From the NCBI GenBank assembly GCA_050014495.1, contig JBEKDF010000030.1, forward strand, positions 1 through 33,181: DNA of 33,181 nucleotides, written 5' to 3'. Source of the DNA: Candidatus Bathyarchaeia archaeon. GTDB taxonomy: Archaea > Thermoproteota > Bathyarchaeia > TCS64. Below, piece by piece: positions 1 to 33,181 of this stretch (within the stretch, counting starts at the first letter, position 1; each line of letters opens with the position of its first letter). The position numbers were made by a program, and so were the translations under genes. The notes below the pieces were generated by a model. The model was not told the DNA's origin. It did no database searches and saw nothing but the letters and a program-made list of their open reading frames with translations.

Positions 1-120
1 TTCTCGGTTTGTGTGCTGGTGTGTCCGTTTGGTGGTCGGCTTTTGTTTGCTGGGGGTCTTTGGTTGTGTCTTAGTGGATGAGAATCTGGGTTTGGGCTCT
101 ATTTAGGGACAGGGCAGCGC

Positions 121-294
121 GCGTCGCTCAACCTCAAGCCGAGGCAGAGGTTCCTCTACCTCTTCGACTATGGGGATGAGTGGCTGTTCGAGGTAGAGTT
201 CGTTGGGGAGGGCGTCTCGGAGGAGGCTGTCTATCCACGGGTTGTGGGTTCGAGGGGCGAGTCTCCGCAGCAATACGAGTTCTACGATGAGTGA
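121..294 (+). pseudogene. 3' fragment of a plasmid pRiA4b ORF-3-like (IS1096 passenger TnpR-like) protein
   Basis: Manual translation ASLNLKPRQRFLYLFDYGDEWLFEVEFVGEGVSEEAVYPRVVGSRGESPQQYEFYDE* contains the family-typical F-x-Y-x-F-D-Y-G-D-x-W motif and a YP..V...G..P.QY tail. There is no start codon (in-frame TGA at 79-81), and the fragment begins at the GCGCGCGT tract at 117-124. Confidence 0.75.
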
Positions 295-397
295 TATCTA
301 AGCAATCAACATTGATAAGAAACAACTAGAATTAATTTGAACCAAGAATGCGCGCGCAACTGCAGCATAGAACTTGATAAAATAAATAGTCATCTAA

Positions 398-1423
398 CTA
401 GTTTTTACCCAATTTTTTAGCTAGCTCGGACAGCTCCTTATCAAGGCTCACACCCTTGTCAAGGATCTGCTTACCATCTACCCAGACTGAGACGTTTAGG
501 CAGATTCCGTCGCTGTGGGACGCTGCTGGTCTAAAAGCCATGTTCCCAATACCCCATTCAACGCATCCCCAAACCCTTTCATCCTCCACAACATCGCCAG
601 TGAGCTTCGCCCCTGGGTTGAAACCATAGCATATATGAGCAATCTTCAACATATTAGGATCATTGAACCCCTTAAGCCAGGTCTCATATTCGACCGCTTG
701 CCTTCCGCCCTCGATCTTTAGAATATCCCCATCTTTTATCGTGAGGATAACGGGATCCTTCAGTAGTCGAAGTGGTGGATTGATTGAGCCATCATATACT
801 ATCTTACCATTTATCGTCTTCAGATCAATAGCCCAGTAGATCTGTCCAGCCATCATATGCGAACCAGGCTTATCCGCGTAACCTAGAGAGTAGTTCCCCC
901 TGTGGTCTGGATTGTTTTTGAATGCCACATCCATGCCCGAAGGGTTGGTGATTCTCACCTCGTTCGCATTCTTGGTCAGATCGGTGATCCTCGCCATGAA
1001 TTTCTCCAGGGTGGGGTAGTCGATTCTACCGATGCATCTCACCATCATGTCGTCGTTCATGCCGACCAGGCAAGAGTACCTTATCTTGTGATTCTCCTTC
1101 ATGACCTTGTCGTAGGCGCTCGAGTAGAAGATCCACTGATTGTTAAACTCAACCCACGCGTCGGCTCCCATCAAAGCACCGACGAGAGAGTCTGTTGGGA
1201 ACATGGGGTCAGCAGCCTTCCCAACTCCAAGGGGAGAGGCTAGCCATATCACCATAGGCTTTGCCCCACATGCGAAGGCAGCACGAGCCGTAGCATCTAC
1301 GACACGGGCGTCGGACTCTGTATCCGCAGTGATGACAAAGGTCTCACCGGGCTTGAGCTTGAATAGCTCACGCGTCAATATGTCTGCTGCCTTACCTAAC
1401 TCAAATTCATAATAACCAGGCAA
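398..1423 (-). CDS. Aminopeptidase, M29/leucyl aminopeptidase (aminopeptidase T)-like metallopeptidase
   Basis: 341-aa ORF with a TTG start. Shows the KPGETFVITADT N-terminus, V.ITNPSGMDV, INGKIVYDGS, GFNPGAKLTG..EDER..G...GIG and SHSDGI...SVWVDG patterns of the M29-like fold. Confidence 0.7.
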   Translation of the reverse strand: MPGYYEFELGKAADILTRELFKLKPGETFVITADTESDARVVDATARAAFACGAKPMVIWLASPLGVGKAADPMFPTDSLVGALMGADAWVEFNNQWIFYSSAYDKVMKENHKIRYSCLVGMNDDMMVRCIGRIDYPTLEKFMARITDLTKNANEVRITNPSGMDVAFKNNPDHRGNYSLGYADKPGSHMMAGQIYWAIDLKTINGKIVYDGSINPPLRLLKDPVILTIKDGDILKIEGGRQAVEYETWLKGFNDPNMLKIAHICYGFNPGAKLTGDVVEDERVWGCVEWGIGNMAFRPAASHSDGICLNVSVWVDGKQILDKGVSLDKELSELAKKLGKN

Positions 1424-1608
1424 TTTCAGTGCCTCAACTATTTGTTACAATTCACCCTTCTTAAATTTTAATGTCAACTTACTAAAAAAAGATGATATAA
1501 ACTTAAACAAGATCGTAAGGGGTGTTTAGAGCTCGCGCTATCGAGACACCATGTAAAAACCTAATCCCATCTTTAATATCCCTAAAAAGGTAATTCGATT
1601 CTGATAGC

Positions 1609-3069
1609 ATGAATCAGAAAATATCTGAACTTGAGCCGAAGGTAGTATGGGGTATATTCGATAAGATCACTGAGATCCCACGTTGCTCTGGTAGGGAGCA
1701 GAAACTCCAGAACTGGGTTAAGAAGTGGGCTGATGAAAACAAGATTCAATTTAGATCTGATGATGTTGGCAACATACTCCTCACGAAAGATGCAAAAATA
1801 GGGTTCGAGGGGTACCCAACAATCGTCTATCAGGTTCACCAGGACATGGTATGCGAGAAGCTCTCAAGCAGCAAACACAACTTCGAAAACGACCCAATCG
1901 AAACAAAAATTGAAGGCAATTATATAGTGGCGAATGGAACAACCCTAGGGGCAGACAATGGCATCGGTATCTCGTTGGCTATGTCCTCCTTGATAGATCC
2001 AGAGGCGAGTAGATACGGTAAGATAGAGGTTCTCATGACTGTCGAGGAGGAGACCACCTTCAAAGGCGCCTCAAACGTGAAGAGGGGATTCTTCACTGGT
2101 AAGAGGATGGTGAACCTCGATAGCGAGGAGACGGGGATAATCATCACAGAATCCGCGGGAGGCGGAAGCACACACTACGAGATCCGCGATCGGCTCGTCG
2201 ATGCGAGGAATTTGAAGGGTTTTAGCATAACAGTCGACGGTCTCCTTGGCGGACACTCCGGAGTCGACATTCATCAAAACAGGGCTAACGCAATAAAGCT
2301 AGTCTCAAGTTACATAAGGAAACTATCAGATATCGCCCAAGTCAGAATCGCCCACTTTGAGGGTGGAACGGTAGCGAACGCTATTCCACGATACGCTCGC
2401 TGTGACTTCCTTACGGAAGACAAAAAGCAAGAAATGAAGGGGTACAACTCAATCTGGGCTGAAGGGATAAGGAAAGAATATCCACTCGAAAAAACAATGA
2501 AGATAACTTTCTCTGAGAAGACATTGAAAAAATCATTTACACGACAAAAGACTAACAATTTGACGAAACTGATCGACGAGATCCCTCAAGGCGTTATAAG
2601 TTGGAGTAAAAATATAGAAGGACTGGTTCAAACGTCAAACAACTTGGGAATAATTAGGACCGAAGAAGATAAAATCAAATTGACTTTGCTTTCGAGGGGT
2701 TCAGATAGCGTGGACCTTGAGAAACTCAGGGCTAGACTCAGAGAGATTGGGGAAAAATGTGACGTAGTGACTACTCAATCTCCGCCATCGACAGGATGGA
2801 GCACAAACTCAAAGTCGTCCTTCGTGAAATTTGTCGCCGAAGAGTATAGAGACCTCATGGGGAACGAGCCGAAAATCACGGGAATACATGGGGGATTGGA
2901 GTGCTCAGCATTCAGCAAATTAGACCCTGAGATCCAGATAGTCTCAATTGGCGCGACTCTAGAATCTCCACATAGCCCTCAGGAGAGGCTGGAGATCTCC
3001 GGCGTGAACGTTGTGTGGAACCTTATAAAGTCAATGAGTAGGGATATCATAAGGGAATCTAAATTTTAA
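1609..3069 (+). CDS. pepD: Aminoacyl-histidine (beta-Ala-His) dipeptidase, M20C
   Basis: Motifs IPRCSGRE, QVHQDMVCEK, TTLGADNGIG, TVEEE, NLDSEE, GGHSGVDIH, TSNNLG, HGGLEC and PHSPQE; 486 aa. Confidence 0.92.
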   Translation: MNQKISELEPKVVWGIFDKITEIPRCSGREQKLQNWVKKWADENKIQFRSDDVGNILLTKDAKIGFEGYPTIVYQVHQDMVCEKLSSSKHNFENDPIETKIEGNYIVANGTTLGADNGIGISLAMSSLIDPEASRYGKIEVLMTVEEETTFKGASNVKRGFFTGKRMVNLDSEETGIIITESAGGGSTHYEIRDRLVDARNLKGFSITVDGLLGGHSGVDIHQNRANAIKLVSSYIRKLSDIAQVRIAHFEGGTVANAIPRYARCDFLTEDKKQEMKGYNSIWAEGIRKEYPLEKTMKITFSEKTLKKSFTRQKTNNLTKLIDEIPQGVISWSKNIEGLVQTSNNLGIIRTEEDKIKLTLLSRGSDSVDLEKLRARLREIGEKCDVVTTQSPPSTGWSTNSKSSFVKFVAEEYRDLMGNEPKITGIHGGLECSAFSKLDPEIQIVSIGATLESPHSPQERLEISGVNVVWNLIKSMSRDIIRESKF

Positions 3070-3158
3070 GCGCCTTATTAAATATGCGCATATGCGTGCG
3101 CGCTTGGCTGTTTAGAAATTATTATAGAACATAGGGCGAACACTTCATTGAGGATAGG

Positions 3159-3235
3159 TTGAACGTTAAGTATGTGCTTGACTCACTCAACCTAGACCAG
3201 ATACGCGCAGAACTCGCGGAACGCGCGTGCGCATG
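3159..3235 (+). pseudogene. Probable 5' gene fragment (MNVKYVLDSLNLDQIRAELAER...) cut at an RY tract
   Basis: TTATA at about 3122, GAGGA just upstream and a TTG start. A helical-looking peptide runs into the ACGCGCGTGCGCATG tract at 3221-3235. Family not recognised. Confidence 0.35.
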
Positions 3236-3356
3236 GATGTCAAGGATGCCCGTCATGTACTGTTTCCCTATCAATTCACAAATGTTCCAGACCGCCGCTC
3301 TCTTCGCGAAGTTTCCCGAGTTCACACTCGAGTCGTACTTCTTCTTGTAGTCGTCG
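3236..3356 (-). pseudogene. Probable internal gene fragment between two RY tracts
   Basis: Open frame RDDYKKKYDSSVNSGNFAKRAAVWNICELIGKQYMTGILDI with coding-like codons (TAC/AAG/GAC), bounded by tracts 3221-3235 and 3355-3364. Family not recognised. Confidence 0.4.
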
Positions 3357-3403
3357 CGCGTGCGAGCGCAATCAATAAAATATACCAGCGTGCACGAGGC
3401 CAG

Positions 3404-4441
3404 TCAAAATGCCTTAAGGGACTCCGCGATCAGTAACAAATCAGAGTATATGGCGTAGGCAGTCTGCATGATCGAGGGATCATGCTCCACGACGCTAATC
3501 TCCCCCATAAGATCCGTCTTCAAGGTGATCGCGCTGGACCTCCCATCTACTGACCAGAAGAGGTCTTCGGGCCCGACAAGCTCGGGACGAACACACGTCC
3601 TCACGTCACCCTCCGCCTTCTCGGCACTCGCAACCAGCTTATACTTCATACCCGAAGCCGCCGCTTTCCTAACGCTCTCAGGGTCAATTCCCCGGATGCC
3701 CGCTCTATCCACCTCGTTGGGGGTTGATCCCGCACCCATGAGCACATTCGCCAGAACGGTTATCTTCGCTGCTGCGTCCCACCCATCGACATCGAGCGAG
3801 GGATCCGCCTCAGCAAAACCGAGCCTAACAGCATCACTCAGCACATCCTCCATGCTCTTCCCCCTAGACATCTCGGTCAGAACGTAGTTCGATGTGCTGT
3901 TCAGGAGCCCACGAACACCTTCAACCTCACATCCCGGCAGAGTCCTCTCCACCAGGTTGAACACGGGGGTCCCATCCATGACTGTGCCCTCGAACCTGAA
4001 TTGTAAACCCCTGGATCGTGCCAGAGAACTCAACTCATCGTAGGCGTATGCTAAGGGGCCCTTATTCGCTGTTACCACATGCATGCCCCTGCTGAGGGCC
4101 TTCCTGATATGGTCTATGGCGGGCTGCCCCGAGCCTATGTTCAGGGTGGTCAGCTCGACCATCACGTTTGCATCGCAAGCCTCAAGGATCTCAATGGGCG
4201 AGAGATCAACGTACCCAGGCAATGAGTCCCTAAAGGTTCCCCCCTTCTCCAACATACCTAGGACTTGACTCAGGTCAATCGCCATATTCGGTAACAGTGA
4301 TCCCCTTGTTCTCGTGGAAATGGCGAGGACTTCAACCTCCAGCCCATAGGTCTCCCTGAGCCACCCCCTCCTGGAGATCAGCAGCTTAGCGAACGCCTGA
4401 CCAACGTTGCCGAAGCCAATCATAGCTAGTCTAAGTTTCAA
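3404..4441 (-). CDS. hom: Homoserine dehydrogenase (short form, no ACT domain)
   Basis: Motifs GFGNVG (Rossmann fold), HVVTANKGP, FEGTVMDGTP, GLLNSTSNYVL and GFAEADPSLDVDGWDAAAK. Confidence 0.93.
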   Translation of the reverse strand: MKLRLAMIGFGNVGQAFAKLLISRRGWLRETYGLEVEVLAISTRTRGSLLPNMAIDLSQVLGMLEKGGTFRDSLPGYVDLSPIEILEACDANVMVELTTLNIGSGQPAIDHIRKALSRGMHVVTANKGPLAYAYDELSSLARSRGLQFRFEGTVMDGTPVFNLVERTLPGCEVEGVRGLLNSTSNYVLTEMSRGKSMEDVLSDAVRLGFAEADPSLDVDGWDAAAKITVLANVLMGAGSTPNEVDRAGIRGIDPESVRKAAASGMKYKLVASAEKAEGDVRTCVRPELVGPEDLFWSVDGRSSAITLKTDLMGEISVVEHDPSIMQTAYAIYSDLLLIAESLKAF

Positions 4442-4554
4442 ACTCGATCACCCCACTTTCACCCTTGGAGATAATCTCGGCACCGGAGGAAAGAAACTTC
4501 CGCGTAGCTCGCACCTAAGAATCAATCATAATAAGATCAAACGCCACAGATCCA

Positions 4555-5847
4555 ATGAGCCACATGATTTTCGATAGAGACCTGTTGGAGAAGATCAGGG
4601 CAGCGTTCCCTAGGGCATCGAAGGACCTGAATGGAAATAAGAGGGCCTTCTTCGACAATGGCACCGGGACCCTAGTAGTAGGAAGGGCAGCCAAGGCAGA
4701 GGCCGAGGCCCGCGTTGATTGCAGCGCCAACGTTGAGGGGATCTTCGACGAATCCAGAAAGGCGGATGAGGTCATACTCGAGGGGAGAGCAGCTGTCGCT
4801 GACCTCCTGAATGCGCCATCCCCAGACAACATCATCCAAGGCGAGTCCACCACATCCCTCTTCTTCAACCTCAGCTACGCGATGAGCAAAGAGCTCACGG
4901 GAAGACAGAACGCCGTCCTGACAGAATACGAGCACTACGCCAACATCAGTCCCTGGGTAGAACTCAAGGAGCGGGGTAAGCTCCGCGAAGTCAGATTCGC
5001 CCGCCTAAAAGCGGATGAGGGAACCCTCGACATGGAGCACCTCAAGTCCCTCATAAACAGAGAGACAAAAATCGTGTCCATAGCTGCAGCCTCCAATGCC
5101 CTCGGAACCAAAAGCCCACTCGAGGAAATAAGGAACATGGCCAAGGAGGTTGGCGCCTACTTCCTCGTCGACGCCGTACACCACGTTGCCCACGGACCAA
5201 TCGATGTCCAGAAACTGGGCTGCGACTTCCTCGTCTTCTCAGGATACAAGCTCTTCGCCCCACACGGCAGCTTCATGTTCGGCAAGGGCGAGCACCTCGA
5301 AGGTCTCACGCCCTACAAGGTCCAGCCCGCACATAACATAGCCCCAGTTAAATGGGAGTGGGGGACGAGGGACCAAGCCAAGTTCGCCGCCATAAAAGGC
5401 TCCGTCGACCATCTAACGTGGCTAGGGGAGCAAGTCAGAGAGCAGTACACAGACAGATTCAACGAGTACCAGGGGAGGAGAAGAACCCTCAAGATCTCAA
5501 TGGACGCCATCGAGAAGTATGAGCTCGAACTTTCAAAAGCCATAGTATTGGGAGTCGATGACCTTAAGGGTCTCTCAGAACTGCCTGGAGTGAGAATATA
5601 CGGATTAACAGACCCGAAACGCTTCGAGGAAAGGGACCCCACCTTCTCCTTCAAAGTGAGAAACAGGCCCGACTCAGAGGTGGTAAGCAAACTGTGGAGC
5701 GGGGGCATAGCCTCGCGCTCCGAGGACTTTTACTCTAGAGCCCTGGAGACCTACGGCGAAAAAGCAATGATACGCATAAGCCTTGTCCATCACAACACAA
5801 TGGACGAGGTCGCCCAGTTCCTGAAAATCATGAACGAGGTTTGTTAA
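4555..5847 (+). CDS. Cysteine desulfurase-like protein (aminotransferase class V, PLP-dependent)
   Basis: Motifs IRAAFP, FFDNGTGT, EHYANISPW, ASNALGT, VDAVH, DFLVFSGYK (PLP lysine), KWEWGT and RISLVHHNT. Confidence 0.88.
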   Translation: MSHMIFDRDLLEKIRAAFPRASKDLNGNKRAFFDNGTGTLVVGRAAKAEAEARVDCSANVEGIFDESRKADEVILEGRAAVADLLNAPSPDNIIQGESTTSLFFNLSYAMSKELTGRQNAVLTEYEHYANISPWVELKERGKLREVRFARLKADEGTLDMEHLKSLINRETKIVSIAAASNALGTKSPLEEIRNMAKEVGAYFLVDAVHHVAHGPIDVQKLGCDFLVFSGYKLFAPHGSFMFGKGEHLEGLTPYKVQPAHNIAPVKWEWGTRDQAKFAAIKGSVDHLTWLGEQVREQYTDRFNEYQGRRRTLKISMDAIEKYELELSKAIVLGVDDLKGLSELPGVRIYGLTDPKRFEERDPTFSFKVRNRPDSEVVSKLWSGGIASRSEDFYSRALETYGEKAMIRISLVHHNTMDEVAQFLKIMNEVC

Positions 5848-5869: not shown

Positions 5870-6033
5870 CACGCGCGCGCGAATCCTCTGATGACTCCGG
5901 ACCCGACCATTGCTTGGATCCTCTTATGTACGACGTTGACTGAGAGGTTGAGCCTAGAAGCGAGTGCTCTATAGGGCGTGCGGCTGTTTTGGAGTAGAGC
6001 CCAGCTCAGAGCTATATCAGTCTCTTCCATCAT
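5870..6033 (-). pseudogene. N-terminal wHTH fragment of an Lrp/AsnC-family regulator
   Basis: MEETDIALSWALLQNSRTPYRALASRLNLSVNVVHKRIQAMVGSGVIRGF is a typical AsnC HTH. Similarity stops at the CACGCGCGCGCG tract (5870-5881) and the ORF ends at 5848 with no effector domain. Confidence 0.8.
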
Positions 6034-6138
6034 TTAATTCGGCTAAAATGTTTGGAGTAGATAATTTAGCAAGAATATAACTGCGTGCGCGAAAATGCTT
6101 AGTTATAGAGGGCATCTGTAGTTGAATAGTACACCCGC

Positions 6139-7452: not shown

Positions 7453-7540
7453 AGATTTGTTAGATTGTAAAGTATATTCTAGGATAAGTGCGGGCATCCT
7501 TTACATGCGACGCTTCCAGAATAACACTAAGTGAAAAGAC

Positions 7541-7840: not shown

Positions 7841-8125
7841 TGCGCTTCCTGAAACAGCAAGTTTTTGTTTCCAATCAAGATTACGAAACACATAAATTTA
7901 CAATTATTATTTTTATAAATTTAAAATTATTTTTGTTTGTCTGTTTGTTTGTAGAGAGAGTGGTGGGGGTAAGAGAGTAAGAGGGTAGTGGAGTGTAGTT
8001 AGTGTTAGATAGTCGTGAGCGTAAGCGGTTGGGTTTGGGGTTTGGGGGGATAAGACTATTGCGCGCGCGGATTATGCAAAAGTAACTTTGGGTTAAGATT
8101 TTCTTAAGACGAGCTCGTGATAGTT

Positions 8126-9339: not shown

Positions 9340-9390
9340 AATTACGATCCCCTTGCGCGCGTGCATGGTTAAATGCACGTGCTCGTAATT
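9340..9390. other. Bulged inverted repeat built on two RY tracts
   Basis: AATTACGA-[TCCCCTTGC]-GCGCGTGCAT-GGTTAA-ATGCACGTGC-TCGTAATT. Confidence 0.7.
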
Positions 9391-9489: not shown

Positions 9490-10674
9490 ATGGCCGAGGA
9501 CATTTTCAGGCGACTCGATGACTCCTACGCCGTTAGACTCACCGAGGAGATGATAGGCATCCCCAGCGTCACAGGGGATGAGGAGGGGCTCACACTATAC
9601 GTGAAGGAGAAGCTCGAATCCTATGGATTCAAGATTGAGCTACAGTACGTGGAGGAAAAGAGGCCCAACTTATACGGGACCCTTGAGGGGGCTAGGCAGG
9701 GGAAGCAGCTAAACTACAATGCCCACAGCGATACTGTTCCCGCTGGCGAGGGCTGGGCAACCGACCCGTTCAGAGCAGTTGTCAAGGATGGCAGGATCTA
9801 CGGACGCGGTGCCTGCGACATGAAGAGCGGCATAGCATGCACACTCAATGCCTTCCGAGCAATCGCCGACGGTGATCACGGTTTCGAGGGTGAGCTGAGC
9901 TTCAGCCTCGTCGTCGACCAGGAGGCCACCGATGTCGGGGCGTGGGCGATGATGAGGGAAGAGAGGTGGCGGAGCCTCGACGCCATCGTCCTCACCTACA
10001 GCTACTGCGGAGACGAGACGAAGCCTATACCCCTCGGTCTCACCGGGAAGATACTCTACGACATAAAGGTGAGGGGAAAGGCAGCTCATGGCTTCAGGCC
10101 CCACCTCGGAGTCAACGCCGTCGAGGATGCAGCCAAGATCGTCGCAAATCTCGACAGGCTCCAGCTCCAGCCCCACCCCGAATTCGGGAGGGGCACGTAC
10201 TGTACCCTCAAGTTCGAGGGTGGATACCAAGTCTACTCAGTCGTCATCCCAGCATCGGCACGCTTCGAGGTCAACCGCCTCCTCGTCCCAGGAGAAACCA
10301 TACAGTATGCCCTCGACGACATGAGGCGACTCGTCGACTCCCTCCATCTCAAGTCGGAGGTCGAGATCGGAGTCAAGCCACCGAGGTACGAGCCCTACAC
10401 CTGCTCGAAGGATGAGCCGATAATGAAGACGCTCGACAGTGTCTACCGAGACGTGATGGGGAGGGCACCCCTCTACGAATACGCATACGGGATAACGAAT
10501 GCGAACATATTCCAAGGTGAGCAGGGAATTCCCTGCGTCCACTTAGGTCCGCAACGCGGCGAAGCGCATGGCGCAAATGAGTACGTCAAACTCGAATGGC
10601 TCCACCCCGTAAGCAAGATGTACGCATTGATGGCCGCACGATACCTAGAGCCTGGGAACACGTGCGCGCATTAA
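9490..10674 (+). CDS. M20A ArgE/DapE-family deacylase/peptidase (atypical active site)
   Basis: Motifs IPSVTGDE, NAHSDTVP, GRGACDMKSG, GKAAHG..P..GVNA and AHGANEYV. The probable start is ATG 9490; the 9373 start lies inside an RY hairpin. Confidence 0.88.
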   Translation: MAEDIFRRLDDSYAVRLTEEMIGIPSVTGDEEGLTLYVKEKLESYGFKIELQYVEEKRPNLYGTLEGARQGKQLNYNAHSDTVPAGEGWATDPFRAVVKDGRIYGRGACDMKSGIACTLNAFRAIADGDHGFEGELSFSLVVDQEATDVGAWAMMREERWRSLDAIVLTYSYCGDETKPIPLGLTGKILYDIKVRGKAAHGFRPHLGVNAVEDAAKIVANLDRLQLQPHPEFGRGTYCTLKFEGGYQVYSVVIPASARFEVNRLLVPGETIQYALDDMRRLVDSLHLKSEVEIGVKPPRYEPYTCSKDEPIMKTLDSVYRDVMGRAPLYEYAYGITNANIFQGEQGIPCVHLGPQRGEAHGANEYVKLEWLHPVSKMYALMAARYLEPGNTCAH

Positions 10675-10690: not shown

Positions 10691-10692
10691 TC

Positions 10693-10791: not shown

Positions 10792-10826
10792 GCAATGCGC
10801 GCGCACGTGAGAAATAGATTAGCTCA

Positions 10827-11414: not shown

Positions 11415-11612
11415 GGTCAGATCTTGAATCTGTAAAGTATTTCAATCTTATTTTAATAACAAAATATTTACACGATCCTGACGGCGTACGTATCCGCACG
11501 CGATAAATTATCAAACGTCGTGGAGCGTGTGCGGCCTAGCAGTTATTCATTTCCGATTAAACTAGTCAAAATAATATAAATAACAGAATATCACCATAGG
11601 GGCATCCCAGAG

Positions 11613-11854
11613 TTGGAAGTTAGAAACAACTCAAAACAATAAGCTTAGAGTCGTTCAGCCTCGACCACACGAAGATCAAGGCCCCCTACATCAGATTATC
11701 AAAGAGAGTGGAAGTCCCCGGAAGTGGCTACGAGATCTCAACATTCGACTTCAGAGTTCGTATCCCGAACACGGAGCTTCTCACCCCGAAAATCACGCAC
11801 TCGCTGGAGCACCTCTTCGCCATCGCCCTAAGGGCGGAGTGCGCGCGCATGCAT
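11613..11854 (+). pseudogene. luxS: 5' fragment of S-ribosylhomocysteine lyase
   Basis: The frame from 11645 reads LESFSLDHTKIKAPYIRLSKRVEV...FDFRVRIPN..L....THSLEHLFA, matching the LuxS ESF.LDH..APY.R and HxxEH motifs. The TTG at 11613 is out of frame by one base. Similarity ends at GTGCGCGCGCATGCAT (11839-11854). Confidence 0.88.
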
Positions 11855-17728: not shown

Positions 17729-17866
17729 CTATGTTCTCATCAAAATCGATAGAGATATTTCAGGTATAAGATACGAGATCAATGACTCAGCATATTTTTT
17801 AAATTTACCCCTGCAGGGTCACCCCATCATTAACAAGTGTAGCGCGCGATCTAAATCGGTCAGCAT
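17729..17866 (-). pseudogene. Internally deleted relic of a paralog of the 15215-16258 gene
   Basis: ATG CTG ACC GAT TTA GAT begins 4 nt after the GT4 stop. It is followed by the GCGCGCG tract (17842-17848), then a frameshifted YTC(Y)DGVTLQG(V)NLK.YAESLISYLI...*, which matches FRCYDGITSKGLNQNKGAESTISYYL in the intact gene. Confidence 0.75.
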
Positions 17867-19475: not shown

Positions 19476-19740
19476 GTATAATTATAATAAATCTTTATTT
19501 ATATTTCCTAGTACTCGCGCGCACTAATGGAGTGTTTGCGCGCGTGCAATACCCGGTATTTGACCCCTCCAACCTTCTGCTCGGTTGTAATCCTGCGGAT
19601 TAAGGCGGGTGCTCGCTGAAAGCACAATTCAGGGGAACTCTGACCTCAATGGACTTATATGCAGTGTATTTTGAAAAAAAAATTATGGATATAAATAATG
19701 CTGAGAAGATTCTTTAAGACCCAACTGAATGGGATAAAAT

Positions 19741-19911
19741 ATGGTTGATTATCAATGCCCTAGCTGTAATGCTCCCATGAAAGAGTTGGAGGTAAACGGG
19801 TTTAAGCTGTGGAAGTGTGACACTGAGAATAAGTTTTTTGATGTAGATGAGGGAAAGACAACTGAGATAAACGAAAAATGGTACAGAGCTCTAGCGGGAG
19901 AAAAGTTATAG
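19741..19911 (+). CDS. 56-aa zinc-ribbon-like microprotein (not in ORF track)
   Basis: MVDYQCPSCNAPMKELEVNGFKLWKCDTENKFFDVDEGKTTEINEKWYRALAGEKL*; CPxC motif plus a later Cys; AT-rich upstream DNA with TTTAA about 28 nt before the ATG. Confidence 0.6.
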   Translation: MVDYQCPSCNAPMKELEVNGFKLWKCDTENKFFDVDEGKTTEINEKWYRALAGEKL

Positions 19912-20206
19912 AAAGAAGATAAGGATTGATTCCATTAGATCAGTAATTAGTTTTAGTTACAATCATAAATATTTCGTGCGCGCTTAGAGCAACATAGTCT
20001 GAATAGACTACCGCTCATCAAGGTGAGAATAAAAGAAATGCAGTTCAGCTGCTTTAAGACGGAGATTTAAGGGGATGTGTATGATTCAAGAAATATCATT
20101 CATCCCGCAGAGGATTCCATTCATTAAATAGAATCACCCCCCGGAGCATGCGCACGTGCATTACTACTATCATCTCTATATCCTGCCAAATTCATCGCGC
20201 GAGCGA

Positions 20207-21139: not shown

Positions 21140-21249
21140 GTAAATTCACCCATCTGCGATTCGTCAAGGAACTTAGTCAGAAAGTCCAAGGATTTGTTCA
21201 CCCTGACGCACATGCGATAACGGCTCTAAAATTGCTGCGCGTGCTAATT

Positions 21250-27598: not shown

Positions 27599-27624
27599 TA
27601 TAAATCGCGGAGTATAATTGAAAC

Positions 27625-28449: not shown

Positions 28450-28722
28450 ATTCAAATCAGTATGTCACTTGGATGATTAATGTGAATTTTCTACTCTGGT
28501 GGCTTATTTTTCGATTACATTCGTTTTATGCGCATGCATTTTATATCTAATTCCTTAGAATAACTTGCCTCCAAAGTGTACACGCGTGTTTTAACACTGA
28601 ATTGGCTCAAATCATAATATATGTAAACGTTCACTTTTGGATGTGATTAAACTGACAATTATTCCTCCTGTTTATAGCCTATCTTTCTACTATCAATTAA
28701 GGAAGAATTAAGCGCATTCCAA

Positions 28723-31281
28723 GTGATTTCATTGAGTACATCTGACAGTGAGAATCTACAACCATATTGGAGTGTCCCAACTTCTGAAGTTTTTCAGCGA
28801 CTTCAGGCGACGTCAAAAGGTCTGACAGAGGATGAAGCACGAAATCGGCTTAAAAAATACGGCTCCAATCTTCTGACGCCTAAGAAAAAATCAGATGCGC
28901 TTACGCTTCTGCTTACTCAATTCAAGAGTCCGATTATCCTCATACTAATCTTTGCAGGTGGATTGTCGTTCTTTCTTGGGGATGCGGTGAATGCCCTAAT
29001 CATCCTCGTTATTATCTTAATCAGTAGTCTACTGGGCTTCTGGCAAGAAAGAGGTGCAACAAACGCTGTCGAAAAGTTACTTGCAATCGTGCAGACCAAA
29101 GCGACCGTATTTCGCAATGGAGATCAAAAGGAGATTCCAGCTAATGAGATTGTGCCTGGGGATCTCATAGTTCTCAATGCTGGAGACCTGATCCCTGCTG
29201 ATTCACTGATCGTGGAATCAAAAGATCTATTCGTAAACGAAGCATCCCTGACGGGTGAAACTTACCCCAGTGAGAAATCAGTAGGGGTTCTGACAGTGGA
29301 AACACCACTTAGTAAGCGGACAAACAGTCTTTTCATGGGAACGAGTGTAGTCAGTGGCAACGGGCAAGCAGTGGTATTAGGAACAGGATCGAGGACTGAG
29401 TTTGGCAAAGTCTCAGAGCGTTTGAAACTTAGATCTCCAGAAACAGAGTTCGAACATGGTGTCAGACATTTTGGATATTTACTAATGGAAATTACACTCG
29501 TATTAGTGGTCGCTACATTCGCCATTAATGTATATTTTGCACGCCCCGTTTTAGAATCACTTCTCTTTTCCCTAGCGCTCGCGGTTGGGCTAACGCCACA
29601 ACTGCTGCCGGCGATTATCAGCATTAATCTAGCGCAAGGTGCCAAAAAGATGGCACTAAAAAAAGTAATCGTCAAGCGGTTGGCATCCATTGAAAACTTT
29701 GGAAGTATGAACGTCCTATGCTCCGATAAGACCGGTACTCTGACAGAGGGCGTGATAAAGGTACAATCCGTGCTTGATCTCAAAGGTAGTGAAAGTGAAA
29801 AAGGGCTTCTCTACGCTTTTCTCAATGCCTCTTATCAGACGGGTTTCACGAATCCAATTGATACGGCGCTATTAACTGATGAAACGATTCAAAATCGTCA
29901 TTTTGATATGTCTGGTTACGTAAAACTGGATGAGGTCCCTTATGACTTCATTCGTAAGCGACTAAGTGTCCTCGTATCTAAGAATAGTACAGGTCTGATG
30001 GTGACAAAAGGTGCTTTGCAGAACGTGATCGATGTTTGTTCCTCTGTTGAATCTTCGGATGCAAAGATTATAGGAATTGCCGAGGAAAATAAACCGATCC
30101 AGGAACGCTTTGAAGAGTTAAGTAACAAAGGTTTTCGCGTTCTTGGTATAGCTTACAAGAATATTGGTTCTGTTAAGCTAATCACAAAAGATAGTGAAGC
30201 TGATATGACTTTCTTGGGATTCCTCGTTCTCTTTGATCCTATTAAAGCTAAGATTATCGATACTATTAGCGAGCTGAAATATCTCGGTATTTCATTGAAG
30301 ATTATAACAGGTGATAATCAGCTTGTAGCAGGTTTCCTTAGTCAACAAGTCGGGTTCCCGACGCCAAGAATTCTCACAGGTTCAGAACTTCTTAAGCTTA
30401 GTGATGAAGCGCTGCTTGGAAGAGTGAATAGTGTCGAAGTTTTTGCGGAGGTTGAGCCCAATCAAAAGGAGAGAATCATCATTTCGCTCAAGAAAGCCGG
30501 CAATGTGGTAGGATATATGGGAGATGGGATCAACGATGCCTCGGCTCTCCATGCTGCCGATGTTGGTCTCTCCGTTGATAGTGCCGTTGATGTTGCCAAA
30601 GAATCAGCTGACATCGTGCTGCTTGAAAAGGACCTAGGCGTTCTCGTGCAGGGGGTAAAAGAAGGCAGGAAAACCTTCGCTAACACTCTAAAGTATGTAT
30701 TCATGGCAACTAGTGCCAATTTCGGAAATATGTTCAGTATGGCAGGTGCATCCCTCTTTCTGACGTTTCTTCCTTTACTACCTAGGCAGATCCTTCTTAC
30801 CAATCTAATGACAGATTTTCCAGAGACAACCATTGGCACGGATAACGTAGATGTTGAAATGGTTGAACTACCTCGACGCTGGAATGTGGCGTTTATCCGA
30901 AATTTCATGATTACTTTTGGCGTCTTAAGCTCAGTATTTGATTATCTAACATTTGGTGTACTCCTTTTCATCATGCATAGCTCTGTCGATCAATTTAGAA
31001 CTGGTTGGTTTGTGGAATCGGTTATCTCAGCATCACTTGTTGTACTAGTCATCCGGAGCCAGCGTCCTTTCTTCAAAAGTACGCCTGGAAAATTTCTGCT
31101 GTTCACCACCTTGGTGATTGTTGGCGCAACCTTAATCCTTCCTTTTACTCTACTCGGATCCCTTTTCGGATTTAGCCCTCCGCCAATGACATTTCTTTTA
31201 GCAACGGCGATAATCGTAGTGTTGTACATTATCTCGGGAGAAGTAGTAAAAGGAATCTTTTACAAGATCGTAAAATTTTGA
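28723..31281 (+). CDS. mgtA: Mg2+-translocating P-type ATPase (P3B)
   Basis: Motifs LTGET, AVGLTPQLLP, DKTGTLT, PYDFIRKR, KGA, TGD, GDGIND, SANFGNMFS and FRTGWFVES. Confidence 0.88.
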   Translation: MISLSTSDSENLQPYWSVPTSEVFQRLQATSKGLTEDEARNRLKKYGSNLLTPKKKSDALTLLLTQFKSPIILILIFAGGLSFFLGDAVNALIILVIILISSLLGFWQERGATNAVEKLLAIVQTKATVFRNGDQKEIPANEIVPGDLIVLNAGDLIPADSLIVESKDLFVNEASLTGETYPSEKSVGVLTVETPLSKRTNSLFMGTSVVSGNGQAVVLGTGSRTEFGKVSERLKLRSPETEFEHGVRHFGYLLMEITLVLVVATFAINVYFARPVLESLLFSLALAVGLTPQLLPAIISINLAQGAKKMALKKVIVKRLASIENFGSMNVLCSDKTGTLTEGVIKVQSVLDLKGSESEKGLLYAFLNASYQTGFTNPIDTALLTDETIQNRHFDMSGYVKLDEVPYDFIRKRLSVLVSKNSTGLMVTKGALQNVIDVCSSVESSDAKIIGIAEENKPIQERFEELSNKGFRVLGIAYKNIGSVKLITKDSEADMTFLGFLVLFDPIKAKIIDTISELKYLGISLKIITGDNQLVAGFLSQQVGFPTPRILTGSELLKLSDEALLGRVNSVEVFAEVEPNQKERIIISLKKAGNVVGYMGDGINDASALHAADVGLSVDSAVDVAKESADIVLLEKDLGVLVQGVKEGRKTFANTLKYVFMATSANFGNMFSMAGASLFLTFLPLLPRQILLTNLMTDFPETTIGTDNVDVEMVELPRRWNVAFIRNFMITFGVLSSVFDYLTFGVLLFIMHSSVDQFRTGWFVESVISASLVVLVIRSQRPFFKSTPGKFLLFTTLVIVGATLILPFTLLGSLFGFSPPPMTFLLATAIIVVLYIISGEVVKGIFYKIVKF

Positions 31282-31339
31282 AGTAATGGCTAAGTCTCCG
31301 TAGCAACCTTTTGCATGTATTTAATTTTTATATCTAAGA

Positions 31340-31388
31340 GGTGGTTTCGGTTTATATTCTAGGCTTTCCAGATAGAATTGGATGCATC
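31340..31388 (+). promoter_or_regulatory. TATA-box promoter/leader of the Lys-rich gene
   Basis: TTTATAT at about 31351; homologous to 21433-21385. Confidence 0.7.
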
Positions 31389-31703
31389 ATGCCAGAAGAA
31401 AAAAAGAGCTTAAGTGAAAAGGCGGAGCACGCAGGAGCAGTTGTAGTAAACGGAGTTAAGACGGGCGCTAAAAAAGCAGGTGAAACCGCGGAGGCCTTCG
31501 GAGAAGGAGTAAAAAAAGAGATGGAAAATGTAGAGGAAAAATCGAAGGAATCAGAAGAATCCGTATTTGAGGGCTTGAAGAAAGAAATTAAAAAACTTAA
31601 GAAGGAAATTAAGAAAGTTAAGGGTAAAAAGAAGAGCAAGAAGGGTAAAAAGAAGAGCAAGAAGGGTAAAAAGAAGAGCAAGAAGAATAAAACGAAAAAG
31701 TAA
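31389..31703 (+). CDS. 104-aa Lys/Glu/Ser-rich protein with a polybasic tail
   Basis: MPEEKKSLSEKAEHAG...EGLKKEIKKLKKEIKKVKGKKKSKKGKKKSKKGKKKSKKNKTKK*. The start ATG 31389 was chosen by alignment with the 21384 paralog. Confidence 0.75.
   Translation: MPEEKKSLSEKAEHAGAVVVNGVKTGAKKAGETAEAFGEGVKKEMENVEEKSKESEESVFEGLKKEIKKLKKEIKKVKGKKKSKKGKKKSKKGKKKSKKNKTKK
31620..31682 (+). repeat. 3 x 21-bp perfect tandem repeat encoding KGKKKSK
   Basis: AAGGGTAAAAAGAAGAGCAAG at 31620, 31641 and 31662. Confidence 0.95.
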
Positions 31704-31907
31704 ACACGAGGTTAAGGTAGAATCTAAAGAAAGAACCGAAGAATCGGCTACTAACTTATTAAAACTGAGTATGCGCATTTAAGATACAAATTAGGAGCGC
31801 ACTCATCTTCGGGATACGAACATTAAGTCGAAGACGTGTTTCTCATATGCTATGCGCGTATTGCATCCTTATGTTAACGCGTGTGTGTGCATGTCTGAGA
31901 CCCGATT

Positions 31908-31925
31908 AACCGATAATTATCGGTT
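31908..31925. promoter_or_regulatory. Perfect 18-bp palindrome abutting a TATA-like box; candidate operator
   Basis: AACCGATAATTATCGGTT, overlapping the start of TTTATTAA about 30 nt upstream of ATG 31954. Confidence 0.55.
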
Positions 31926-31953
31926 TATTAACTGCGAAATATATCATCCAGCT

Positions 31954-32385
31954 ATGAGTAAAAATGATAGAAATGAAGCACCAGAACTAGCAGAGATTCG
32001 CCGCGAGTTAAATCAGGTGGCTTGGCCATCAGACGTTGACAAGTTGATTAATCTCATCAACGTCTATAAAGACCACGCCGTTGATGCCGCACGTATACGC
32101 ACTGCTCCGCCGATAATAAGTGCGGTTGTATTCTCAAACCTAACTAATTCGAGCGTAAAGATAACTTGGATGACTAACGAGCCTGGTGACAGCGTAGTAA
32201 AGTATGGGGTCACAACGGCGACAGGAAGCATGGTATCCGATCCTGCGATGGTTACAAGTCACTCTTTGACCCTTACCGGACTCGAGGCTGGGACGACTTA
32301 TTATTATTTAGTTGCCTCAACAGATTCGGTTGGAAATAGATCGGTCGATAGCAATAGTGGTATCTACTACACTTTTAAAATCTAA
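31954..32385 (+). CDS. Fibronectin type III / purple-acid-phosphatase-N-like domain protein
   Basis: APPIIS...SVKITWMTNEPGDSVVKYG...HSLTLTGLEAGTTYYYLVASTDSVGN. The probable start is ATG 31954; the upstream ATG lies in an RY tract. Confidence 0.8.
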   Translation: MSKNDRNEAPELAEIRRELNQVAWPSDVDKLINLINVYKDHAVDAARIRTAPPIISAVVFSNLTNSSVKITWMTNEPGDSVVKYGVTTATGSMVSDPAMVTSHSLTLTGLEAGTTYYYLVASTDSVGNRSVDSNSGIYYTFKI

Positions 32386-32398
32386 AAGCTGTGATGCG

Positions 32399-32436
32399 CG
32401 CGCGCATGAATAAATTGAATAATTTACATGCGCGCG
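32399..32436. other. Bulged hairpin built on two RY tracts
   Basis: CGCGCGCATG-[AA]-TAAATT-GAAT-AATTTA-CATGCGCGCG. Confidence 0.75.
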
Positions 32437-32481
32437 AATAAAAAATGCGATTGAGATTCTTAGAATCTTGGAGTTGAAGAA

Positions 32482-32883
32482 ATGTCGAGTTACATGAAGA
32501 AGGTGTCGGCACATCTGTTTTTGAGGAGAGTTTTTCGTGTGCTAGATGATGTAGCGAAAGAAGAGAATGTAACTTTATTGGAGCATGTTTCGAATATGAT
32601 CAAGAGTGGTGAAACACTAGTGTATTACGCGGATAGTGAGAAGTATAGGGGACAGATTGATGATCTGTTTGGGCGTTCGAGTGTGCGCTTTTTATTGGGT
32701 AGATCTAAGGGGTATTTTAACACTCCTGAGAGTGATATTCGGGAAGCTTTGCCTTGGTGGATGGATAGAATTAAGGAAATTAATCCTGATCTTAACTATG
32801 TCATTGTGGTGGAGCCTAATGGACAGGAATGGTTCGTTCAGATGTGCATAGATTTGACTAAGATTTGCAAAGGCTATATTTGA
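32482..32883 (+). CDS. Hypothetical protein (133 aa)
   Basis: ATG-initiated ORF with protein-like composition and GGAG upstream, flanked on both sides by RY tracts. No family recognised. Confidence 0.6.
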   Translation: MSSYMKKVSAHLFLRRVFRVLDDVAKEENVTLLEHVSNMIKSGETLVYYADSEKYRGQIDDLFGRSSVRFLLGRSKGYFNTPESDIREALPWWMDRIKEINPDLNYVIVVEPNGQEWFVQMCIDLTKICKGYI

Positions 32884-33181
32884 ATGGGTGCGCATGCGCT
32901 AAGTTGAGGCTCTACATATATCACACCCTACGAGGGAAGGGGCATTTGGTCTATTGGTCTAGGCTGCTCATGAATTTGGCTCTTTTCTTATATTTACAGA
33001 GAGCTGCGCGCACAAACGTATCTTAACAAGCCTAAACAATTATTTTCATCTTAGTTCTGAGCGTGCGTACGCTCAAGTTAATATGTACGCGTTTCTTCAT
33101 TTTGAATCAGTATGAAAATAATGTATAAACTAGTCTACATGAGTATCCTTCTCCTAGGGATCATCATCGCGTTAGCCCAAT

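Follow-up and report, generated by a model that had tools for sequence, protein, structure and literature searches.

The analyzed window is a stretch of 33,181 nt from a peat archaeon (Candidatus Bathyarchaeia) and contains 25 ORFs. In total, 102 alternating purine-pyrimidine (R/Y) runs of at least 8 nt were found in the window. CG is present in 71 of these runs, of which 38 are intergenic and 33 coding by rough ORF calls. All four tracts quoted as examples in the initial annotation were found where it had placed them: ATATGCGCATATGCGTGCGCGC (3082..3103), CACGCGCGCGCG (5870..5881), GTGCGCGCGCATGCAT (11839..11854), and ATGCGCGCGCGCATG (32394..32408). The GCGCGC-type intergenic runs are genuine, and their frequency is far beyond chance. 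The background was provided by exact dinucleotide-preserving shuffles, 200 each for the intergenic (6,170 b) and coding (27,011 b) classes of the window; this split is approximate, being made by our own crude ORF caller, which called 80% of the genome coding. Intergenic DNA of the window contains 38 R/Y runs with CG (shuffle mean 11.8, maximum 22), 16 runs of at least 8 nt with three or more CpG (mean 1.08, maximum 5), and 16 pure (GC)3+ tracts (mean 2.16, maximum 7). The corresponding numbers for coding DNA, 33 (shuffle 35.8), 4 (2.28), and 7 (5.03), are not enriched. Thus, the expected excess over shuffled sequence was found in intergenic DNA and not in coding DNA. The reported rarity of tracts in coding DNA also agrees with the whole genome, where R/Y runs with three or more CpG are 13.9-fold denser in intergenic (779 in 0.61 Mb) than in coding DNA (229 in 2.50 Mb). 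No pure (GC)3+ tracts were found at the gene junctions of the operon 12007-14988 or anywhere within 21111-32396, a span including the polyphosphate operon, in line with the tract-free junctions previously described for the operons 12007-14988 and 22355-28449. The CGCGCG at 14956-14961 is intragenic.

Three insertion-sequence (IS) remnants, each bounded by tracts, are located at 1-116, 123-357, and about 3104-3221, so the view that the window is free of mobile-element machinery needs correction. The contig begins inside the first of them, an IS1182-like terminal part of the IS-B type (1..116), the tip of which (...ATTTAGGGACAGGGCA) abuts the tract at 117-123. Positions 1-123 match C61 at 92% as well as several copies in one relative. 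Assemblies of three of four other runs have loose ends at 123, indicating that other copies share both tip and tract. The tract GCGCGCGT (117..124) joins the IS-B tip to the truncated IS-C remnant, and homology ends cluster at 124. IS-C (123..357) is represented by a truncated IS1182-like 3' part with the right tip ATGCTTGGTTCAAAATT (other-strand reading), capped by the tract ATGCGCGCGCA (348..358). This remnant matches L097 at 87%, and the IS-C tip there is likewise followed by GCGCGCGC. The third remnant is a solo left end of IS-A (3104..3221, plus strand, ~118 nt, tip TTGGCTGTTTAGAAATT), which ends before the transposase gene. The final six bases of ATATGCGCATATGCGTGCGCGC, a tract located 13 nt past an M20 peptidase stop codon, abut its left tip, and its cut-off point is the tract ACGCGCGTGCGCATG (3221..3235). 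The IS-A remnant is 98% identical to C27:3624-3737. Longer copies in C11 and C14 continue into a DUF772 transposase gene, and the fuller copy in C14 has no tract at the corresponding point, reading ...GCGGAACACTACC... there.

A 123-nt fragment (3234..3356) with a tract on each side has homologues elsewhere in two relatives (78% to G016:C28; 86% to G008:C86 for the sub-part 3283-3360). Its right border is CGCGCGTGCG (3355..3364), 40 nt past the homoserine dehydrogenase stop. CACGCGCGCGCG lies 23 nt past the aminotransferase stop and forms the left border of the fragment 5878-6046; in G011, (CG)5 is located 43 nt past the stop of the aminotransferase orthologue. The CitMHS transporter unit is bordered on the left by TGCGTGCGCG (6082..6091), orthologous to CGCGCGCGCG in G002:C37, and on the right by a decayed tract (..AAGTGCGGGCAT.., approximately 7485..7496), where G002 has GCGCGCG. 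The outer flanks of this unit in G002:C37 are unrelated to those in the window. TGCGCGCGCG (8060..8069) separates the multi-copy fragments 7932-8062 and 8069-8108. TGCGCGCGTGCATG (9354..9367) is located within the 59-nt divergent spacer 9314-9372, and no homology boundary was found at this tract. The fragment 10671-10791 lies between ACACGTGCGCGCAT (10658..10671), at the second M20 peptidase stop, and ATGCGCGCGCACGTG (10795..10809), 18 nt past the FMN reductase stop. Two tracts, CGCGCGCAC and TGCGCGCGTGCA (19516..19548), precede the glycosyltransferase start codon by 41-73 nt. A small zinc-ribbon ORF region (19771..19932, plus strand) has a 96% copy in contig C32 with a tract on each side, unlike the source copy in the window, which ends without a tract. 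CGTGCGCGC is found at 19975..19983, and TGCGCGTGC (21236..21244) marks the left edge of the repeat 21250-21441 (86% to C76). ATGCGCGCGCGCATG begins 9 nt past the stop at 32385 and has a second tract, TACATGCGCGCG, beside it (within 32394..32436). The R/Y run GCGTGCGTACGC (33061..33072) starts a 122-nt terminal repeat common to contigs C59 and C76.

The tracts are joints where DNA was cut, lost, inserted, or rejoined. Among 135 clusters of homology ends identified against relatives, 16 are no more than 5 nt from a tract (expected 3.44 +/- 1.96), a number reached in 0 of 2000 circular shifts; the proposal that rearrangement, insertion, and deletion joints lie at tracts is therefore upheld. Genome-wide, 142 of 3282 repeat-alignment ends are within 5 nt of a tract versus 21-28 at shifted positions, and in 92 distinct paralogue alignments, homology stops where one copy meets a tract and its partner continues. 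Solo tracts mark gene truncations, deletion joints, and borders of displaced segments. A 5' fragment of a luxS-like gene (11555..11843, plus strand) is cut off at GTGCGCGCGCATGCAT. Its five homologues (four relatives and the genome's own C36) continue ...GGAGT[G/T]CGAGGA[A/G]CA... where the window enters the tract. At 17842..17862, GCGCGCG and 14 nt of filler form a deletion joint. The corresponding stretch in two relatives, 916/922 bp, codes for ~300 aa at the C-terminus of a CBS-glycosyltransferase protein; the gene for this protein (17871-19475, minus strand) has lost its C-terminal part at the joint. Both genes are truncated exactly at tracts, and their intact homologues lack these tracts. 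Of the 16 segments bounded by two tracts, 9 are copies of ordinary, mostly coding DNA, the source copies of which are tract-free at both ends.

Pure (GC)n tracts of at least 8 nt were found 395 times in intergenic DNA of the genome versus 8.0 in shuffled sequence (10 shuffles, maximum 14). GCGCGCGC occurs 40-402 times per genome in 15 same-genus genomes, and once in each of 2 further same-genus genomes; counts for 13 genomes of other genera are 0-15; the sister genus has 15 matches. The mosaic region of the initial annotation does contain tracts, but these are genome-wide and genus-wide and not special to it. Tract length has a sharp upper limit at 10 nt across the genus. Odd lengths account for 52% of the tracts of 7-10 nt, and even-length tracts begin with G about 3 to 1 (146:46 for 8 nt, 78:33 for 10 nt). 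Tract coverage peaks 10-30 nt past stop codons and 50-80 nt ahead of start codons, with a depletion from -40 to 0 relative to the latter. Neither a conserved motif nor a T-run was found in the tract flanks, no Rfam family matched, and hairpin pairs are rare, since only 44 of 1125 gaps between neighboring tracts are shorter than 40 nt. Orthologous tracts differ between genomes by transitions, with 1-3 changes per 8-10 nt, the adjacent gene being ~89% identical. Among the one-change neighbors of (GC)5 in intergenic DNA, 220 result from transitions (16 variants) and 121 from transversions (32 variants). The tracts are thereby shown to decay mainly through transitions, which preserves R/Y alternation. 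The R/Y pattern lacking an exact consensus had been correctly observed, and transition decay of (GC)n explains it.

IS1182-like elements of the genus encode a DUF772 + DDE_Tnp_1 transposase, are about 1.2-1.3 kb long with 17-20-nt inverted tips, and carry (GC)3-5 directly at these tips. In four relatives, 13 multi-copy elements, including one IS-B + IS110 composite, could be delimited; of these, 9 are flanked by tracts on both sides and 4 on one side. In this genome, 8 of 10 DUF772 loci have (GC)3-5 immediately ahead of the left tip. Tracts at 31 IS ends, falling into 8 groups with identical 22-nt tips, measure 6-10 nt, with 24 of even and 7 of odd length, and each of the 31 ends in ...C against the tip. 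No target-site duplication was seen in three IS copies with flanks compared by eye. In L112, IS-B has flanks that correspond to C1:28193-29080 and 29510-30121 of this genome; IS-B and two tracts replace a 430-bp stretch of a gene, which this genome has intact and with both breakpoints tract-free. Similarly, a tract-flanked IS joint in L118 falls within a gene of which this genome has an intact version without a tract. IS1272, a member of the IS1182 family, is a precedent for such behavior: its insertion creates no target duplication and is accompanied by loss of target DNA, and palindromes are targeted by some members of the family (PMC5678879). DUF772 transposases could be identified in 13 of the 17 genomes of the genus, as well as in the sister genus; outside the family, 0 of 12 genomes yielded one. 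Capping is specific to certain IS kinds, because an IS5-like element belonging to a different subfamily lacks tracts both in the tract-poor G010 and in this genome.

Tentatively, and with a probability slightly short of even, we read the tracts as scars of IS1182-like insertion and later loss, decaying by transitions into R/Y runs. On insertion, two GC caps would arrive at an arbitrary site, where target DNA would often be lost. Later loss of the element, either through recombination or slippage between these caps, which are identical palindromes, or following IS-mediated deletion, would leave behind a single cap no longer than 10 nt. Selection would spare only joints between transcription units, which would account for the peaks 10-30 nt past stops and 40-70 nt ahead of starts, and the remaining caps decay mostly by transitions with R/Y alternation kept. 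Abundant palindromic caps would double as landing sites for other elements, such as those of the IS110 family. Several observations speak against this reading. Flanks resembling an IS tip occur at only 46 of 1125 tracts, so that 96% must have lost all trace of an IS. No pair of filled and solo alleles was found; for only 1 of 13 IS copies do both flanks lie on a single contig here, and contigs of four runs contain no joint skipping the IS-B copy in C5. The 9 of 16 segments with tract-free sources need several IS steps, whereas end joining needs one. Tract length varies among copies with identical tips, and the cap is therefore not faithfully copied. The tract-rich G015 (20 contigs, 92% complete, 177 GCGCGCGC matches) has no match to DUF772 or IS110 transposases, and G013 (351 matches) has none to DUF772. 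The transposases score below the IS1182 curated cut-off (168.6 vs 270 bits), and a 166-bp indel relative to G004 (15062-15227) has no tract.

That the tracts are artefacts of assembly or amplification is scarcely credible. Several contigs do end in repeats beside tracts, but independently assembled contigs from four other runs (four studies) span the joints within positions 1-20000 of the window without a single mismatch (for example, 94-1894, 1754-3125, 3177-4186, 5012-6896, 7953-9446, 9687-15888, and 16716-19669), and chimeric joints are rejected for those covered. The feature also recurs in 15 further genomes at species level, some of them in assemblies of 6-30 contigs. Selected boundary elements of transcription units (terminator-like, insulator, protein-binding, or Z-DNA), merely favored by breaks, are quite improbable. 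The coverage profile around stops and starts would suit them, as would the CitMHS unit with its tract at each border in two genomes with different neighbors. They are difficult to reconcile with tracts at truncation points of dead genes and IS fragments, the free decay of orthologous tracts, two essentially tract-free genomes of the same genus, featureless flanks, rare hairpin pairs, and the lack of an Rfam match. More doubtful still is the integron-like system of the initial annotation, in which a recombinase would use pre-existing (GC)n sites to swap gene cassettes. Perfect palindromic microhomology is common to all tracts, and some tract-bounded segments (the CitMHS unit, 3234-3356, and 10671-10791) occur in differing contexts between genomes. 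However, tracts appear where intact homologues have no such site, which argues against a cassette origin, and they arise at arbitrary intragenic points, which excludes a site-specific recombinase acting on pre-existing sites as their producer. Moreover, 9 displaced segments stem from tract-free sources, the tracts are 6-10 nt long without attC-like structure, genes lie on both strands, and the window, as annotated before, has no integrase among its ORFs.

The main rival to the IS-scar reading, unlikely on balance and still to be taken seriously, is an undescribed host end-joining route that would write short self-complementary (GC)n linkers on broken ends, which would then anneal and be ligated. 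These linkers would connect the ends at deletion joints, at captured fragments, and at excised linear IS copies alike, IS elements being passengers or mere landers in palindromic scars. Such linkers might be written by a templated polymerase or by some lineage-specific partner of the Ku/LigD set. No writer was found, a literature search yielded no enzyme adding alternating GC, and none is known to have been described. The standard end-joining set is not sufficient, since Ku also occurs in two tract-poor members of the genus, G001 and G010, as well as in the sister genus (15 matches). Every IS copy seen has precise tips and no sign of the usual end-joining nibbling; the odd-length share exceeds that expected from chance flank extension of even GC units; and in a shallow search GCGCGC was absent from the 3.3-kb loci of the two non-replicative primase-like genes of this genome, which lends no support to an RNA-templated version. 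On the other hand, end joining would account for new tract sequence carried by neither parent at arbitrary breakpoints, for the 92 paralogue alignments that stop at a tract in only one copy, and for the 9 tract-bounded copies of ordinary DNA with tract-free sources. IS insertion without target duplication, the 430-bp loss, and variable tract length beside identical tips are predicted by linear-piece capture. The fixed phase at DNA ends and the G-start bias look as if synthesis began with G at each 3' end, and the genus-wide 10-nt limit and the tract-rich G015 point in the same direction. A complete LigD Prim-Pol / Ku / ligase + phosphoesterase cluster was found in G000:C3. Finally, an unrelated IS110-family element also sits between tracts, as expected of pre-existing sites.

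Short runs of alternating purines and pyrimidines (R/Y) of the GCGCGC type, herein referred to as tracts, accumulate between the genes of the window. All four tracts quoted by the initial annotation are located where it had placed them. R/Y runs of at least 8 nt with at least three CpG were found 16 times in the intergenic DNA of the window, versus 1.08 expected and a maximum of 5 in 200 dinucleotide shuffles, and 4 times in its coding DNA, versus 2.28 expected from the same exact dinucleotide shuffles. The proposed excess of tracts between genes and their rarity within genes are thus confirmed. In the whole genome, R/Y runs with at least three CpG are 13.9-fold denser in intergenic than in coding DNA, pure intergenic (GC)n tracts of at least 8 nt number 395 versus 8.0 expected, and the 8-mers most enriched in intergenic DNA are GCGCGC-type words, alongside TATA-like words. 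In the genus, the word GCGCGCGC has 40–402 occurrences in each of 15 other species and a single one in each of two more, compared with 0–15 in 13 genomes from elsewhere. The tract feature is lineage-specific.

Genome-wide, tracts of 7, 8, 9, and 10 nt number 186, 192, 144, and 111, respectively, and only 12 tracts have at least 11 nt. The 10-nt limit holds throughout the genus: 10-mers and 12-mers number 99 and 9 in the window genome (G000) and 62 and 2 in a relative (G011). Microsatellite slippage was rejected as the origin of the tracts, since their lengths are flat from 7 to 10 nt and then collapse, and half of the tracts have an odd length. For positions 1–20000 of the window, contigs from four other public runs, belonging to four studies, were available; such contigs drop rare variants, and no tract length variants were found in them. 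These independently assembled contigs span the joints of this region with 0 differing letters, so the joints are not chimeras, and an assembly artefact was rejected as having a negligible probability. The favored phase of the 10-mers varies by species, the ratio of GCGCGCGCGC to CGCGCGCGCG being 99:54 in G000, 7:48 in G007, 32:69 in G013, and 8:24 in G009; different tips of insertion sequences (ISs) or a different template may cause this variation.

The tracts decay. Among the intergenic one-change neighbors of (GC)5, 220 differ by a transition (16 variants) and 121 by a transversion (32 variants), i.e., transitions are 3.6-fold more frequent per variant. Additionally, R/Y alternation extends beyond the pure core more often than by chance. 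Decay by transitions keeps the purine/pyrimidine class, and it accounts for the shared R/Y pattern without an exact consensus that had been described for the window.

The core inference of the initial annotation, that tracts are scars of junctions, is right, as breakpoints coincide with tracts. In a self-comparison of the genome, the repeats of the window terminate at tracts. Genome-wide, 142 of 3282 ends of repeat alignments are located at most 5 nt from a tract, versus 21–28 at shifted positions. In 92 distinct cases, the alignment of two paralogues halts at a tract in one copy and the other copy continues; in 29 cases a tract is present in both copies, and those inspected are IS ends. Comparison with genomes of the genus gives the same picture: of the 135 clusters of homology ends in window 1–20000, 16 are at most 5 nt away from a tract, versus 3.44 ± 1.96 expected; none of 2000 circular shifts reached 16 clusters. 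These tract-adjacent clusters touch 12 of the 25 tracts of this region.

Individual joints illustrate the types of rearrangement. The 5′ fragment of a luxS-like gene (11555–11843) joins GTGCGCGCGCATGCAT at the point where five homologues continue with GGAGT[G/T]CGAGGA[A/G]CA. At 17842–17862, GCGCGCG plus 14 nt replaces 916 or 922 bp of two relatives, corresponding to the C-terminal ~300 aa of their CBS-glycosyltransferase. The window gene for this enzyme (CBS-GT1, 17871–19475, minus strand) lacks the C-terminal ~300-aa domain found in the two relatives. Its TGA stop falls right at the deletion joint, and the shortened protein may therefore still be made. The CitMHS unit (6083–7492) is flanked by tracts at matching positions in the window and in the relative G002, with unrelated outer flanks; the tracts of the window are decayed compared with those of G002 (TGCGTGCGCG versus CGCGCGCGCG, and GTGCGGGC versus GCGCGCG). 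A tract-free indel was also found, a 166-bp insertion at 15062–15227 relative to contig C29 of G004, which indicates that the GC scar does not mark every indel of this lineage. A part of this insertion (15116–15209) has copies in two other relatives. Elsewhere in the genome, two 213-nt direct repeats, 96–97% identical and 7,270 nt apart, were found on contig C25 (23487–23699 and 30757–30968; positions 988–1199 and 8258–8469 of locus L128). Both begin with G(GC)5C, and the 7-kb segment between them may represent a duplication with tract borders or an integrated element.

Tract coverage peaks 10–30 nt past stop codons, in convergent and tandem spacers, and again about 40–80 nt ahead of start codons (40–70 nt in divergent spacers), and is depleted from −40 to 0. 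From these peaks, the tracts were first read as promoter/terminator boundary elements. This reading was dropped because tracts also mark the points at which genes and IS fragments are cut short. Three features argue against a signal for transcription-unit boundaries: the joints themselves, the flanks, where A or T beside the tract is the sole preference and no further motif was found, and the rarity of paired tracts, as gaps between neighbors are shorter than 40 nt in 44 of 1125 cases. On the basis of the same gaps, hairpins formed by pairs of tracts were rejected. Neither a T-run nor a paired second arm, as in intrinsic terminators or structured RNAs, was found in the 70 displayed of 209 stop-proximal examples. 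Functional boundary elements are thus an improbable explanation, and the tracts caution against taking a position bias past stops and before promoters as a regulatory signal. Palindromic extension into the flanks, as from hairpin opening or P-nucleotides, was also rejected: among 303 tracts with a length of 8 or 10 nt, the fraction with at least 1 nt of extension is 0.422, versus 0.411 with permuted partners (maximum 0.462). The Z-alpha model PF02295 has no match, but it is likewise silent in all 14 control genomes and is therefore uninformative.

Remnants of three IS types were found in the window, and the reading of this region as free of mobile-element machinery is not borne out. Positions 3104–3221 are a solo left end of the IS-A type, longer copies of which run into a DUF772 transposase gene; in all copies of this type, GCGCGC immediately precedes the tip TTGGCTGTTTAGAAATT. 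The tip of a second type, IS-B (1–116), and a truncated end of a third, IS-C (123–357), are both bounded by tracts. In the more contiguous assemblies of relatives, 13 elements could be delimited, with a tract at both edges in nine and at one edge in four. At 31 IS ends whose 22-nt tips are identical, the tracts measure 6–10 nt (24 even and 7 odd), and the base adjoining the tip is C in every case. Three copies were compared by eye, and none shows a target duplication beyond its tracts. In locus L112, a 430-bp stretch of a gene that G000 retains intact and without a tract is replaced by an IS-B copy and its two tracts, and the IS joint of locus L118 falls within a gene that is intact in G000. 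At neither of these two informative insertion sites was a tract found in the intact homologue; the tract may come with the IS or may be a duplicated palindromic target. In G000 and in a tract-poor relative, an IS5-like element of a different subfamily lacks tracts. Tracts also flank an unrelated element of the IS110 family. This element (L118:4320–5567; in G000, C17:57461–58787 and C48:5777–7103) encodes a 361-aa protein with DEDD_Tnp_IS110 and Transposase_20 domains. It is located between two (GC)n tracts beside an IS1182-like copy, an arrangement seen in two species. Its left end is GC-rich and probably structured, and its guide RNA may be aimed at tracts.

The longest transposase ORFs of the capped elements (278–321 aa) combine DUF772 with DDE_Tnp_1. 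PF05598 and PF01609 were found in all five ORFs scanned, with PF05598 under its cut-off in three ORFs of 278–280 aa. The best NCBIfam model is IS1182 (NF033551), with 168.6 bits for IS-A and 95.6 bits for IS-B, both under its cut-off of 270; an IS5 model is the runner-up with 80.2 and 57.4 bits, respectively. In a tblastn search of plasmids, the IS-A transposase has only 26–28% identical matches, the top three being annotated as IS5 family. With DUF772, a DDE domain, and inverted tips of 17–20 nt, but scores under the curated cut-off, the elements are, judged by sequence, IS1182-like.

Tc1/mariner-type cut-and-paste transposons leave excision footprints, and solo LTRs arise by recombination between terminal repeats. 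As IS scars, the tracts would resemble both in that a few terminal nucleotides of the element would be left over and that scars outnumber elements and mark old insertions. They differ in being a palindromic GC run of at most 10 nt, through which two donor ends could anneal. We know of no prokaryotic IS element with such a footprint, nor of any with a comparable ‘self-sealing’ end design, as the ends would have if the tracts are IS scars. Likeness is also seen in IS1272 of Staphylococcus, an IS1182-family element with an IS5/IS1182-superfamily transposase, terminal inverted repeats, loss of target DNA without target duplication, and a link to palindromic DNA (PMC5678879). IS1272 displaces an existing stem-loop of any sequence, and a fixed (GC)n flank is not described for it (PMC5678879). 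Unlike in IS1272, the tips here abut (GC)3–5; the intact homologues show no palindrome at the two informative sites, and about 1,080 solo tracts occur without an IS.

Two explanations of the tracts survive. In the favored one, which we hold tentatively and at somewhat less than even probability, the tracts are scars of an IS1182-like cycle. In such a cycle, the caps would come in with the IS, which would afterwards be lost, leaving a single cap behind. Several observations fit this cycle: tracts abut these IS tips, two insertions went into genes free of tracts, and the lineage distribution and the reported behavior of IS1272 (PMC5678879) agree with it. Its weak points are that an IS-tip-like flank was found in only 46 of 1125 tracts, 96% having no trace of an IS, and that no pair of filled and solo alleles was found. 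Flanks of the 13 IS copies of relatives were compared with G000, where both flanks fell on the same contig for L112 alone, and no joint skipping the IS-B copy of contig C5 was found in the contigs of four runs over C5:76000–92000. One X6 contig joins C5 to sequence resembling C61 through a 103-nt repeat common to both, as either a real allele or a contig switch. The IS cycle has two further weak points: 9 of 16 segments with a tract at both sides copy ordinary DNA with tract-free sources, one being a 96% copy of window 19771–19932, and the relative G015 has 177 matches to GCGCGCGC and no match to a DUF772 or IS110 transposase. As tracers of tract density, DUF772 and IS110 counts were rejected, as they track it only loosely.

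Somewhat less probable is end joining that would write short GC linkers onto DNA ends. A dedicated route would then place a self-complementary (GC)3–5 linker, starting with G and stopping at ~10 bases, on every free end and make any pair of ends cohesive, so that deletions, captured gene fragments, and transposon insertions would be stitched alike and the genome would be reshuffled into blocks of transcription-unit size. This would account for captured fragments, breakpoints at arbitrary positions, insertions without target duplication, tracts of variable length, a fixed phase where tracts meet DNA ends, the 10-nt limit, and the roughly 3:1 excess of G-starts in even-length tracts. A complete NHEJ cluster was found in G000 (C3:63436–67463, locus L107), adjoining a DUF72 gene and encoding a LigD-type Prim-Pol (279 aa), Ku (265 aa), and a fusion of an ATP-dependent ligase with a 3′-phosphoesterase (463 aa). 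The known NHEJ polymerases, to our knowledge, add one or a few nucleotides and no defined alternating GC run. The gene set corresponds to the archaeo-prokaryotic NHEJ of the Methanocella type (PMC4797286; PMC8656161). End joining typically leaves deletions, filler, and captured fragments at its joints. The set, found in G000 and its family, also occurs in tract-poor relatives, however. Ku was found in 14 of 17 genomes of the genus and in the sister genus, but in none of 12 genomes outside the family; it fails as a predictor of tract density, since it is present in the tract-poor G001 and G010. The writer of the linkers is hypothetical. An RNA-templated primase gained no support in a shallow test: PF09250 was unmatched, and no GCGCGC was found in the 3.3-kb loci of two extra primase-like genes. 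These are two of four PF01896 matches, on contigs C20 and C53, the others being the replicative primase and the LigD Prim-Pol. The C53 gene (268 aa, weak DNA_primase_S match; C53:5849–9058, locus L127) is probably on an integrated element; its neighbor is an ORF that weakly matches a phage integrase, and two TGCGCA-type palindromes separate the two.

Integron cassettes are moved by an IntI-type tyrosine recombinase, share one orientation, and carry attC sites of about 57–141 nt with paired core sites. Gene-sized units parted by short palindromic sites recall this arrangement, and the initial annotation had proposed an integron-like mechanism of gene shuffling. In contrast, no IntI-type integrase was found by Pfam scan among the 25 ORFs of the window, the tracts have 6–10 nt (R/Y runs up to 22 nt) with unconserved flanks and no attC architecture, genes lie on both strands, and tracts arise de novo within genes. 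The proposed mechanism is therefore unsupported, and an origin of the tracts in an integron-like cassette system is very unlikely. REP elements are imperfect palindromes of 20–40 nt with a conserved head, spread by a Y1 (RAYT) transposase. The likeness to them lies in hundreds of short extragenic palindromes just past gene ends, on which IS110/IS621-type elements land, as they may on the tracts. Unlike REP elements, the tracts are 6–10 nt of pure GC, and the Y1 (HUH) transposase model PF01797 has no match in G000, with positive controls in 6 of 14 genomes.

The tract feature is unusual, and no description of it was found in the literature searched. Neither GC-capped IS elements nor GC-linker joints are described in that literature, which lies outside subscription journals and includes PMC13343696. 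Either origin, IS scars or repair linkers, would be new. As IS scars, the tracts would represent an IS lineage with palindromic GC caps that mark former sites of insertion and deletion by a legible footprint, and a rare fossil record of insertion sequences splitting an archaeal genome into blocks. As products of repair, they would represent a new principle of end joining by universal sticky ends, which could also be useful as a tool. For the annotation of genomes of this uncultured group, the tracts offer a simple marker of rearrangement joints, pseudogene ends, and foreign inserts.

The window is the entire 33-kb contig C30 of a 3.1-Mb, 92-contig MAG (G+C 49%), whose genome is 96% complete. 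Neither a tRNA nor an Rfam family was detected in the window by tRNA and Rfam scans. Its genes are ordinary, including M20 peptidases, homoserine dehydrogenase, aminotransferases, a CitMHS transporter, glycosyltransferases, glycosidases, and a P-type ATPase, together with a PPK1/CHAD-PPX/PPX/PPK2 operon. Among named relatives, the PPK1 gene is closest (74% aa) to a record labelled Candidatus Bathyarchaeota. This gene has an 82% paralogue on contig C33 of the same genome and just one match, of 68%, in relatives. At 19400–33181, the G+C content falls to 38–45%, and DNA-level homologues are nearly absent from the genus (matches in only 6 of 17 genomes). The low G+C content and scarce homologues suggest that the polyphosphate operon is accessory or acquired. 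The final 122 nt (33060–33181) recur with 100% identity where contigs C59 and C76 end, indicating a branch of the assembly graph at a repeat; this repeat begins at an R/Y run.
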